A stretch of 64,000 bases of DNA. Origin: Escherichia coli (lineage in GTDB: Bacteria > Pseudomonadota > Gammaproteobacteria > Enterobacterales > Enterobacteriaceae). The translations under genes and the position numbers were made by a program. Each line of letters starts with the position of its first letter. Within the stretch, counting starts at the first letter, position 1. Below, in pieces: positions 14,069 through 16,153 of the stretch. The notes beneath the pieces were generated by a model. That model was not told the DNA's origin. It saw only the letters and a list, made by a program, of their open reading frames with translations, and did not search any database. The stretch lies in assembly GCF_003334815.1 (NCBI RefSeq), contig NZ_QOWO01000016.1; one strand, 5' to 3'.

Positions 14069-14228
14069 TTAAGAGTAGTGAACAAACCACTCGTCAGCAA
14101 ACTCCCAAGTATCTTTCAGAGTCTCCTGAACAAAAGCCTTAGCAGAATCCTTATCTGCGGTGTACGTAACAGGAAAATCATCGCTATGGTAGCTTTGACG
14201 CTCACCCCCATACCATAAAATATCAAGA
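14069..14228 (-). pseudogene. dinI-like gene remnant (3' part only, no start codon)
   Basis: Minus-strand frame reads ...[30 protein letters not shown], matching the C-terminus of the intact dinI-like gene at 15846-16094; upstream frame hits a stop. Confidence 0.55.
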
Positions 14229-14410
14229 GATTACGACTCATTTCCCCATGACTCTTCACCAACCAACAGTTCTATCAACATAAGATGTAAACTCATAAAC
14301 TAAGCAAGATAAAAAAATTAACAGAATTTTGTTGATTTCATGTCTGTGGAGTGTTAACTTAAAATGAGACCTGAAGTACTGAAGGTCTTTGACACACTGG
14401 AGAAGCAACT

Positions 14411-14770
14411 ATGTTAACGCCGTTTGGTAAGACAGTAAGAAAAATGCGCATAGACTTGGGGCTTACGCTTAAAAGCATGGCTGAGGCTATGGGCATGACC
14501 TCGTCTTATCTTTCAGCGATCGAAACTGGTAAAAGGGCGGTCACTAAGCCCGTGCTTGATAGCATCATTAGCTATTTTAATGCGGATGAAAAACAAAAAG
14601 AAAAGCTTATCAGTGCAGCTCGTGACTCTCAGCAGTCAGTAGAGATCAGCTTGTCAGGTAAGAATGGCCACGCTCGTGAAGTCGCAATTGCGTTCGCTCG
14701 TAGTTTTGATGAATTAAATGAAGAAGACTTCCGTAATTTACGACAGATTTTGAATCGAAAACAGCAGTAG
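14411..14770 (+). CDS. XRE-family helix-turn-helix transcriptional regulator
   Basis: 119-aa ORF; HTH segment LTLKSMAEAMGMTSSYLSAIETGKR; GGAGAAG upstream of ATG. Confidence 0.8.
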   Translation: MLTPFGKTVRKMRIDLGLTLKSMAEAMGMTSSYLSAIETGKRAVTKPVLDSIISYFNADEKQKEKLISAARDSQQSVEISLSGKNGHAREVAIAFARSFDELNEEDFRNLRQILNRKQQ

Positions 14771-14778
14771 GAGGCGGC

Positions 14779-15300
14779 TTGAGCGGACAAGATTATCGTG
14801 TACCTCCGCAGAATCGTGAATCAATACGTTCTATCGTCACATCTCTGCGGAGCGCATTTGGTATTACTGGGCTTAAATTCCCTGTAATGGAGGTAATTGA
14901 GTTCGCATTGCCTCAGTTGATCCCGGATTTTGAGTTCCACATTGGTGGCATGAAAGAAATGGGAGAAACGCATGGTCTTACGTACCCACAGGAACATTTA
15001 TTGATTCTGCGCGAAGACATTTACGAAGGCGCTTTGAATGGGGTAGGGCGAGATAGGATGACTGCCGCGCATGAATTGGGTCATCTTCTTATGCACAGGA
15101 ACATCGCATTTGCTCGTTCTGCCCCAGGGGTAAAAATCCGCCCTTTTGAGAGTAGTGAATGGCAAGCTAAATGTTTTAGTGGTGAGTTATTAGTGCCGGC
15201 TATGCATGTCAGTATTTTAAAAGGTATGACGGCTGAGGATGTTGCTAAGGCATGCGGAGTTTCATTAGTGGCAGCGCGTTATCAGCTAGACAGAATGTAA
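14779..15300 (+). CDS. ImmA/IrrE-family zinc metallopeptidase (DUF955-like)
   Basis: 173-aa ORF with HEXXH motif (AAHELGHLLMH); TTG start 4 nt after AGGAGG, 8 nt after the HTH stop. Confidence 0.8.
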   Translation: MSGQDYRVPPQNRESIRSIVTSLRSAFGITGLKFPVMEVIEFALPQLIPDFEFHIGGMKEMGETHGLTYPQEHLLILREDIYEGALNGVGRDRMTAAHELGHLLMHRNIAFARSAPGVKIRPFESSEWQAKCFSGELLVPAMHVSILKGMTAEDVAKACGVSLVAARYQLDRM

Positions 15301-15303
15301 AAA

Positions 15304-15338
15304 CCCCTTGCTTGGCGCCAACCAGTGCAAGGGGCTTT
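15304..15338 (+). terminator. hairpin terminator candidate after HTH/peptidase operon
   Basis: ccccttgc ... gcaagggg stem followed by cttt. Confidence 0.45.
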
Positions 15339-15453
15339 AGGTGATGAATCCAAGAGGCATCACCACCGTGAACAGCTTCGATAGACAGCCTGAAATTAAC
15401 ACCTTCAGGGAAGATGTTCAAGGGAAAAATCTCTCTTGGTAAGGAGGTGTTTT

Positions 15454-15558
15454 ATGAATGGGTTTGAAATCAATTGCTTCAAAAGCGGCGCCCAAAGGGT
15501 TCCGTTGGGTTTTCTGCCGTTACCGCAAGGTGCGTGGGAAATCAAAAAAAGTCCTTGA
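15454..15558 (+). CDS. small ORF (34 aa) with near-consensus Shine-Dalgarno; unknown
   Basis: AAGGAGGTG 5 nt upstream of ATG; flanked by hairpins; followed by terminator at 15620. Confidence 0.25.
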   Translation: MNGFEINCFKSGAQRVPLGFLPLPQGAWEIKKSP

Positions 15559-15619
15559 TGCTCATGATTACGGGTACGAGGCGTGGGCATTTTTAGTGCG
15601 CTGCTAAGGGTTAGTATTT

Positions 15620-15644
15620 AAGGCACCTGCGGGTGCCTTTTTTG
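15620..15644 (+). terminator. Rho-independent terminator
   Basis: aaggcacctgcgggtgcc stem-loop followed by TTTTTT. Confidence 0.7.
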
Positions 15645-15739
15645 TATCCTCTGACCCGATTGGTGTCTTGCTGAGCCTGATAACTACCAATTTTTGTTAT
15701 TACTATTCTACTATCGCTCAATCATGATTGGCGGGAGTT

Positions 15740-15840
15740 GAAACCGCAGGCACGTCGTATGCAAGAACGTGCTGCGGCTGGCTGGTGAACTTCCGATAGT
15801 GCGAGTATTGAATGATTTCCAGCCGTTACAGATTTTACGT
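15740..15840. repeat. direct repeat copy R2 (~101 bp)
   Basis: ~93% identical to 12455-12555. Confidence 0.8.
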
Positions 15841-15845
15841 GCTAA

Positions 15846-16094
15846 TTAGTGAACAAACCACTCGTCAGCAGACTCCCAGGTATCTTTCAGAGTTTCCTGA
15901 ACAAAAGTTTTAGCTGAATCTTTATCGGCGGTGCGCGTAACAGAAAGGCCATCGTTGCTGGTGGCTTTTACGATCACCTCTACATCGTCATAACGCTTAC
16001 TGATGCGTCGAGTTAATTCTTCCTTTAACGCATCCACAGCACCGTTTGGCATTTTAGTCATTTTCTCTTTAGCTATGCAGATCTCAATACGCAT
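15846..16094 (-). CDS. DinI-family SOS-inducible protein (prophage-borne)
   Basis: 82-aa [13 protein letters not shown]...[11 protein letters not shown], DinI-like; two LexA boxes in its upstream region. Confidence 0.85.
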
Positions 16095-16109
16095 AAAAAT
16101 CCCTCTACA

Positions 16110-16125
16110 CTGTGTTTGTATACAG
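16110..16125. promoter_or_regulatory. LexA (SOS) box 1 upstream of dinI-like gene
   Basis: CTGTgtttgtatACAG, fits CTGT-N8-ACAG. Confidence 0.7.
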
Positions 16126-16137
16126 TGTTATTTTTAA

Positions 16138-16153
16138 CTGTATAAATAAACAG
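16138..16153. promoter_or_regulatory. LexA (SOS) box 2 upstream of dinI-like gene
   Basis: CTGTataaataaACAG, fits CTGT-N8-ACAG. Confidence 0.7.

Follow-up and report, generated by a model that had tools for sequence, protein, structure and literature searches.

Why should a prophage carry the same small gene twice, once intact and once as a broken 3' end, and what do the two copies reveal about how the DNA between them was acquired? The locus that raises this question lies within a 64,000-nucleotide (nt) stretch of an Escherichia coli genome (RefSeq assembly GCF_003334815.1, contig NZ_QOWO01000016.1), referred to here as the window, which is prophage up to approximately position 16375. The region belongs to a temperate prophage whose tail-fibre and pin invertase module is e14-like, and forms the arm closest to prfC. 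From left to right the order is the pin gene, the first copy of a repeat termed D2 (D2a), an AT-rich cassette, a fragment of a dinI-like gene, 34 nt of junction DNA, a unit encoding a helix-turn-helix (HTH) protein, an M78 peptidase and a 49-residue protein, a further 96 nt, the second D2 copy (D2b), an intact dinI-like gene, its LexA boxes and finally prfC (Table 1). The answer that emerges, with good confidence as a whole, is that a LexA-boxed dinI unit here probably stands beside the dead fragment of a different dinI allele, which was left behind when the arms of two phages were joined and was afterwards redistributed by recombination. The anatomy of the locus, the independence of its blocks, the single origin of the junction between fragment and HTH unit, and the interval in which exchange took place can be read directly from the comparisons. 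Loci from other genomes and viral contigs are designated by L numbers.

Central to the argument is the nature of the fragment. The sequence-only reading had placed a repeat of the dinI 3' end at 14077-14210, with an identity of about 85%, the same C-terminal peptide and no start codon, and pairwise alignment bears this out at 84.8-87% with slightly different limits. A repeat finder pairs 14076-14183 with 15847-15954 at 87% identity over 108 nt with no gaps, and a gapped comparison extends the match to 14076-14206 against 15846-15978, giving 84.8% over 132 columns with a single 1-nt gap, with the similarity fading at approximately 14206-14218. On the minus strand the fragment reads as a C-terminal peptide like that of the intact gene and covers approximately the last 43 codons of dinI, the 5' half being absent. 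A 1-nt deletion near 14185 disrupts the upstream frame, and the open reading frame (ORF) list of the window contains no minus-strand ORF of at least 30 amino acids (aa) ending at 14069. The stop codon, at 14069-14071, is found two codons beyond the normal dinI stop (..FVHYS, then stop) because the junction with the cassette falls within the original dinI stop codon. Two other explanations that the same reading had named both fail: rather than an intact gene in another frame, RefSeq annotates this fragment sequence in three genomes (L001, L003 and L010) as a DinI-like pseudogene, either partial or frameshifted, and rather than a repeated intergenic element, the similarity is to coding sequence. 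With homology to only part of a gene, a missing start codon and a broken frame, 14069-14206 is a non-functional scar.

The intact copy is a gene of quite different standing. Its product matches phrog_189 (RecA filament binding protein DinI) with an E-value of 4.4e-31 and E. coli DinI (PDB 1GHH) with an E-value of 7.9e-13 over residues 1-81, so that both the size of around 80 aa and the full-length profile match of the DinI family are found, and the acidic C-terminal helix WESADxWF is present and aligns with TWESADDWFV of DinI. There are no nucleotide differences from the gene in L001 (strain 510016), where it is annotated as WP_001217539.1, 'DinI-like family protein', and the protein of the window should be identical to this RefSeq entry. 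When set against phages cdtI and PhiR63_1 the gene agrees at 133 of 133 positions in its 3' half and at 113-115 of 116 in its 5' half, by which it appears as an ordinary, non-mosaic allele in both halves.

Upstream of the gene are two LexA-type boxes, CTGTGTTTGTATACAG at 16110-16125 (box 1) and CTGTATAAATAAACAG at 16138-16153 (box 2), exactly where the sequence-only reading had located its two CTGT-N8-ACAG motifs, and these are the only two matches to that pattern in all 64 kb, compared with a mean of 0.68 after shuffling. A promoter-like site on the minus strand consists of TTGACA (16159-16154), an 18-nt spacer and AAAAAT (16135-16130), such that the spacer between the -35 and -10 elements is filled by box 2 and the predicted start region falls under box 1, an overlap of LexA box and promoter as in genes of the SOS regulon. 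Across the eight dinI units examined box 1 is kept in all eight and box 2 in six. By analogy with E. coli DinI, LexA would hold the gene off until DNA damage led to its expression, and the DinI-like protein would then bind RecA filaments through its acidic C-terminal helix, modulating the SOS response and possibly also the induction of the prophage.

The other end of the gene is marked by D2, a second direct repeat of 102 nt and 93% identity that had been overlooked in the earlier reading. The distance between D2b and the dinI stop is 5 nt, and on the dinI strand the element forms a G+C-rich hairpin of 14 bp with UUU directly behind it; D2a is located directly after the pin stop codon, with the AT-rich cassette between it and the dinI fragment. 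D2 is most simply understood as the 3' untranslated region (UTR) and terminator of dinI, common to the convergent pin invertase gene. An Rfam search of 11800-16500 returned two sub-threshold matches only, to STnc130 (30 bits) and CssrB (23-25 bits), both of which are essentially terminator hairpins; on the plus strand the D2 hairpin has a weak resemblance to the 3' end of CssrB, scoring 24.8 bits against a gathering score of 76. The D2 element adjoins dinI in many unrelated prophages. For instance, the right-hand 580 nt from D2b to the start of prfC are 96-99% identical in the lambdoid phages cdtI, 2H10 and PhiR63_1 and in many Shiga toxin (Stx) phages, and a dusA-integrated relative with the cargo-free order pin, D2, dinI, int matches the window over 15739-16162, from D2 to just beyond the second LexA box. 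As this stretch is shared across phages, D2, dinI and the boxed promoter together form a compact and widespread unit. The functional part of the locus is self-contained, a dinI unit of approximately 420 bp with a LexA-boxed promoter, an 82-aa ORF and the D2 terminator hairpin, and it adjoins the attachment arm or the integrase in many otherwise unrelated prophages.

Table 1. Features of the prfC-proximal prophage arm, with window coordinates, strand and the evidence used for each
Feature	Position	Strand	Basis
pin/gin-type serine DNA invertase; last conserved gene of the tail-fibre module and left anchor of the cargo slot	11902..12456	+	ORF list; pinE in L002, L004; NCBIfam recombinase matches
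D2a, most simply dinI 3' UTR and terminator hairpin; parted from any dinI by the cassette	12454..12555		direct repeat; D2 directly precedes dinI in L004-L007
AT-rich cargo cassette between D2 and the dinI stop codon	12556..14075	+	composition; NCBIfam; 99.9% identical to L002
Cassette ORF, 84 aa	12815-13069	+	ORF list
LPO_1073/Vpar_1526 family protein, 313 aa	13066-14007	+	NCBIfam NF045477, 85.9 bits vs cut-off 45
dinI 3' fragment, divergent allele, truncated and frameshifted	14069..14206	-	repeat; alignment; RefSeq pseudogene calls in L001, L003, L010
Junction DNA from dinI break point to HTH unit, 34 nt	14207..14240		only in copies of the fragment/HTH block
Portable unit	14241..15642	+	Pfam, PADLOC, phrog, terminator; recurs in L008, L009
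XRE-type HTH protein	14411-14770	+	PADLOC capH, E 3.6e-10
ImmA/IrrE M78 metallopeptidase, HELGH motif	14779-15300	+	Pfam PF06114, E 8.5e-9; PADLOC capP, E 4.9e-11
49-aa protein	15458-15607	+	phrog_33859 (conserved phage protein), E 1.5e-26
Hairpin and T-run terminator	15620-15649	+	terminator prediction
Spacer from portable unit to D2b, 96 nt	15643..15738		only in copies of the fragment/HTH block
D2b, most simply dinI 3' UTR and terminator element; directly adjoins the intact gene	15739..15840		direct repeat; hairpin folding
DinI-like gene, intact, 82 aa	15846..16094	-	phrog_189, 1GHH and NCBIfam matches; L001 identity
dinI promoter and two LexA boxes	16110..16159	-	motif search; promoter prediction
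Phage-borne attachment-site arm; four TGTACA, replacement prfC upstream region and start codon, core	16160..16375		empty-site and attP/attB comparison; motif count

Do the DNA segments to either side of the fragment belong together? It had been proposed that the fragment marks a module boundary and that the cassette and the HTH/peptidase pair are two separately acquired blocks, and comparison with the right arms of related prophages upholds this, both in the independence of the blocks in other genomes and in a sharp switch of ancestry at the fragment. The cassette occurs without the HTH/peptidase genes in L002 (strain GPEC620-622), where the order is pin, D2, the same cassette, an intact 84-aa dinI and prfC. 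The converse, HTH/peptidase without the AT-rich cassette, is seen in L001, L010, L013 and L014: in L001 a lambdoid tail-fibre region is followed by a reverse transcriptase (RT) and SLATT gene pair, the fragment, the HTH gene, the peptidase gene, D2, dinI and prfC, while the IMG/VR contigs L013 and L014 show RT and SLATT, fragment, HTH and peptidase before ending within the block. The RT and SLATT pair directly to the left of the fragment is interrupted by IS1 in strain 510016 (L001 3101-5777) and intact in L013 (9167-10889). In L010 (E21845), L003 (IPCEC31) and L012 (a pin-type viral contig) the order is D2, fragment, HTH, peptidase and a second D2; in L010 the first D2 stands directly to the left of the fragment, free of cargo, and the block runs on to prfC. 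Altogether the block is preceded by four different left contexts, namely the cassette, RT and SLATT, D2 after a lambdoid tail-fibre assembly gene, and a GIY-YIG gene with D2, and it is found in both lambdoid and pin-type phages.

Whatever lies to its left, the inner edge of the block does not change. All six other loci (L001, L003, L010, L012, L013 and L014) share the break at 14207/8 together with the 34-nt flank, and the four that extend to the 96-nt flank (L001, L003, L010 and L012) have it in the same form, L013 and L014 ending earlier. As the junction is identical in every copy, it arose once, and for the same reason the fragment belongs to the HTH/peptidase block. It is also rare, being carried by only 9 of 5,426 complete E. 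coli genomes, and the full combination seen in the window is absent from this set of 5,426.

The switch of ancestry can be located very closely. Over 11800-14075 the window has 3 differences from L002 in 2,276 positions (99.9% identity), while over 14076-14206 it has 21 differences from L002 in 132 positions and 1 from L001 in 131, that single difference being at position 14078, which has the L002 base. From 14207 to 16400 there are 6 differences from L001 in 2,194 positions. To the left of 14078 the window is thus 99.9% L002-type and to the right of 14100 it is 99.2-99.7% L001-type, so that the fragment coincides with the change of ancestry in the flanking DNA, as is characteristic of a gene remnant at a boundary. 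From these positions it follows that the exchange took place in 14079-14099, 21 bp that do not vary among dinI alleles and that belong to the final eight codons. One and the same left arm, bearing the cassette, has been joined to two different right arms via short homology at the end of dinI. The possibility that L002 is a simple loop-out of the arrangement in the window was considered and rejected, given that the right arms of the two differ by 5% and the left arms by 0.1%.

How, then, was the fragment placed in front of the HTH gene? The simplest account, though somewhat short of even likelihood in its specifics, is one illegitimate joining of two phage right arms, for instance by deletion across a tandem double lysogen at prfC, followed by spread through homologous recombination. 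A single ancestral event of this kind would have placed the block encoding the HTH, M78 and 49-aa proteins, with its own D2 and dinI, behind a truncated dinI gene; most simply this would have been a deletion across a tandem double lysogen, or else recombination between a phage and a prophage. The dinI 3' end, D2 and the attachment arm would since have acted as homology anchors, allowing the cargo to their left to be swapped, and the window is one such recombinant, in which a cassette-bearing left arm met a fragment-bearing right arm within 14079-14099.

Certain points weigh against this account of joined arms and a working dinI unit. An intact gene of the fragment's allele was not found in the collections searched, and decay in place is not fully separable from prior divergence; the event behind the fragment/HTH junction, moreover, is not reconstructible from present sequences. 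With regard to the intact gene, the NCBIfam DinI equivalog (NF007893) is matched at 72.5 bits, below the cut-off of 111, for which reason the RefSeq name 'DinI-like' is used and the protein may not act just as chromosomal DinI does. The promoter has a weak -10 hexamer, AAAAAT, two relatives have a degenerate box 2, and LexA control, SOS induction and RecA binding are ascribed to this unit by way of its family.

A bolder extension of the joined-arm account, and a rather unlikely one, is that D2 and the last dinI codons serve as dedicated portable exchange linkers, by which defence-type cargo is passed between lambdoid and pin/e14-like phages at prfC or dusA sites, with the block of HTH, M78 and 49-aa genes acting as a self-standing DNA-damage-sensing module.

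The placement of the repeats also brings to mind a tandem duplication of D2 and dinI within one phage, where the left copy decayed in place and the HTH/peptidase unit was inserted later, and indeed D2 followed by the dinI 3' end brackets the block as same-order direct repeats in L003, L010 and L012. The divergence of the copies argues otherwise, as they differ by 15% in the dinI 3' repeat (D1) and 7% in D2 when orthologues across genomes are 98-99.9% identical, and the right copy is identical to widespread phage alleles whereas the left is about equally far from all of them. In a search of 50,697 phage records the fragment was 84-86% identical to every intact dinI allele found (best 85.6%, distant mode). 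Matches of at least 95% among the 5,426 E. coli genomes number only nine, all with the HTH junction, the others being at 85-86% over 131 nt or 90-91% over 101 nt. An exact 21-mer from the fragment detected only three contigs in IMG/VR, all of which share the same junction, and a pattern scan with a 22-mer gave no match in 100,044 species-representative genomes. Between the fragment and the intact gene 6 of the 14 differing codons are synonymous, a proportion of nearly half that also speaks against duplication and weakly suggests that the fragment diverged as a working gene prior to its truncation. With an ordinary intact allele, an equidistant fragment and synonymous changes, a recent duplication in place is therefore disfavoured, and is considered unlikely.

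Very unlikely is a scheme in which the HTH/peptidase block is, or once was, a small integrative element with dinI as its specific site, bringing a new 3' end to that gene in the way that e14 does to icd, the fragment then being the displaced original end. The geometry fits, with the 5' part of the gene, an element-borne 3' end, the element and a displaced 3' end in order, the host phage treats the 5' end of prfC likewise, and the unit at 14241-15642 is portable. This scheme was nonetheless rejected. The ORF list gives the block no integrase or other recombinase; an element of this type should leave the copies with an identical core at the inner (5') end of the repeat, but identity is lowest there and highest at the stop codon; it should also leave a mosaic intact gene, but both halves of the gene match ordinary alleles; and no dinI fragment is annotated beside the unit at its location between yejO and an integrase.

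Most improbable is that the fragment has been kept for a function, as a regulatory RNA, an antisense target or part of the operator of the divergent HTH gene, for although it is 98-99% conserved among around a dozen copies and lies upstream of the HTH gene at a distance of approximately 200 nt, the neutral-looking flanks are equally conserved through recent common descent, the portable HTH unit elsewhere begins at 14241 with the fragment absent, and the fragment has no Rfam family match and no predicted promoter-like site.

The joined-arm account places all of these events beside an attachment site, whose structure can be outlined. The whole of 16095-16900 is matched by approximately 700 of the 5,426 complete E. 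coli genomes, while in the others, a K-12 derivative among them, the match begins only at 16334. Alignment with a K-12-type empty site and with the attP of cdtI identifies a shared att core, approximately ATTATTTCTCACCC, at 16362-16375 within the prfC coding sequence. The prophage thereby provides the upstream region of prfC, its start codon (16314) and its first 15 or so codons, giving an N-terminus that differs from the K-12 sequence MTLSPYLQEVAKRR; prfC is listed among prophage integration targets (PMC3603311). The LexA-boxed divergent promoter is located approximately 160 nt upstream of prfC. The motif TGTACA occurs four times within 115 nt of this arm (16179, 16248, 16276 and 16288), out of nine occurrences in the entire 64 kb, and is also repeated on the int side of the cdtI attP, so that these are probably integrase arm-type binding sites. 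On the far side of the cargo, just upstream of pin, sets of convergent tail-fibre and tail-fibre-assembly ORFs lie on opposite strands at 10337-11875, an arrangement that resembles the Mu/e14 kind of invertible segment for host range.

The slot that separates dinI from pin, or from the tail-fibre genes, varies from genome to genome, with at least eight contents: none, DUF4145, DUF262, GIY-YIG, an SDH-type Clp protease, the LPO_1073 pair, RT with SLATT, and cdtABC. In phage vB_EcoM-689R6 it is McrA that directly follows the invertase. With conserved flanks and unrelated contents in related phages, the pin-to-dinI interval has the familiar pattern of a variable cargo hotspot, here next to the prfC attachment arm. 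In the window the slot is occupied by the two-gene LPO_1073 cassette, where elsewhere nuclease- or defence-like genes are held. Its GC content is approximately 31-33%, compared with approximately 46-52% in the DNA on both sides, and the 313-aa protein has no match in Pfam or PADLOC. The first 80 or so nt of the cassette (12556-12636) recur at 77-83% directly after D2 in L003 (6871-6953) and L012 (1636-1716), with different cargo behind them, a 262-aa HNH-like ORF in L012 and a hypothetical protein in L003; they may be a further short linker, the third, or a promoter region that different cargoes have in common.

The unit to the right of the fragment travels further. It recurs at 89% in L008 and L009 (6001-7403), between yejO and the integrase of another phage, and in these loci a LexA-box-like sequence, CTGTATATGCAAACAG, is found approximately 240 nt upstream of the HTH gene. 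Its 34-nt and 96-nt flanks have no further match in the window or in the fetched loci outside copies of the block. An HTH repressor is followed by an M78 peptidase with an HExxH motif, as in CapH/CapP; an adjacent divergent effector operon is not seen, as upstream there is only the dead dinI fragment and downstream only the 49-aa ORF.

What does this add to what is known? The arrangement is a new combination of well-known prophage mosaicism at a cargo hotspot beside an attachment site, and RefSeq already has annotations for its components, a DinI-like protein and a partial DinI-like pseudogene. Relative to the sequence-only reading there are three refinements: D2 is added as a second repeat, the junction is traced to a single origin and the exchange is confined to 21 bp. 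The value of the locus is as a clean worked example, in which the join between phage blocks can be placed within 21 bp of shared sequence in the last codons of a small gene, and it shows that very short conserved segments permit cargo to be exchanged between unrelated prophages. In prophages integrated at prfC or dusA it also points to the interval from pin to dinI as one in which to seek uncharacterised cargo, such as the LPO_1073 pair and the unit of HTH, M78 and 49-aa genes. Nothing new is added on DinI or the SOS response.

Of the known systems with which the locus can be compared, the closest to its functional part is chromosomal DinI of E. coli, which is SOS-induced and binds RecA filaments. 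The two proteins are alike in their length of approximately 80 aa and in their alignment over residues 1-81, including the WESAD(E/D)WFV helix. The promoter of dinI in K-12 is overlapped by LexA box or boxes. The gene of the window differs in being prophage-borne, in having two boxes rather than one and in scoring below the equivalog cut-off, and its action on RecA is proposed by analogy. The HTH and peptidase genes likewise resemble the CapH/CapP and ImmR/ImmA pairs, in which an XRE HTH protein is followed by an M78 HExxH peptidase; they differ in that no effector operon, be it of a cyclic-oligonucleotide-based antiphage signalling system (CBASS) or of another kind, adjoins them, the only neighbour being the gene for the 49-aa protein, and cleavage and damage sensing would apply by analogy only.

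At the level of the whole arm, lambdoid coliphages such as cdtI, mEp460, PhiR63_1, 2H10 and many Stx phages have the same module of D2, dinI, LexA box and attachment arm at 96-99% identity over approximately 580 nt, with cdtI presenting cdtABC, D2, dinI, attP and int in order; the window differs in that the module is borne by a phage of the pin/tail-fibre (e14-like) type and is preceded by a second, truncated copy of dinI. Prophage e14 of E. coli K-12, with stfE-pinE-mcrA beside its attachment site at icd, shares the tail-fibre and pin module, the K-12 match being 92%, and the cargo gene following pin in e14 is mcrA. It differs in its attachment site and integrase and has no dinI unit at that end. 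More generally, P2/P4 hotspots and lambdoid morons hold variable cargo or defence genes flanked by conserved genes and boundary sequences. The window resembles such temperate-phage hotspots in its conserved anchors, in the unrelated and often defence-like genes held between them, and in a cassette with a base composition of its own; what distinguishes it is the great shortness of the anchors, which amount to a terminator element of 102 nt and the final dinI codons, and the sharing of the same anchors by two different types of phage.

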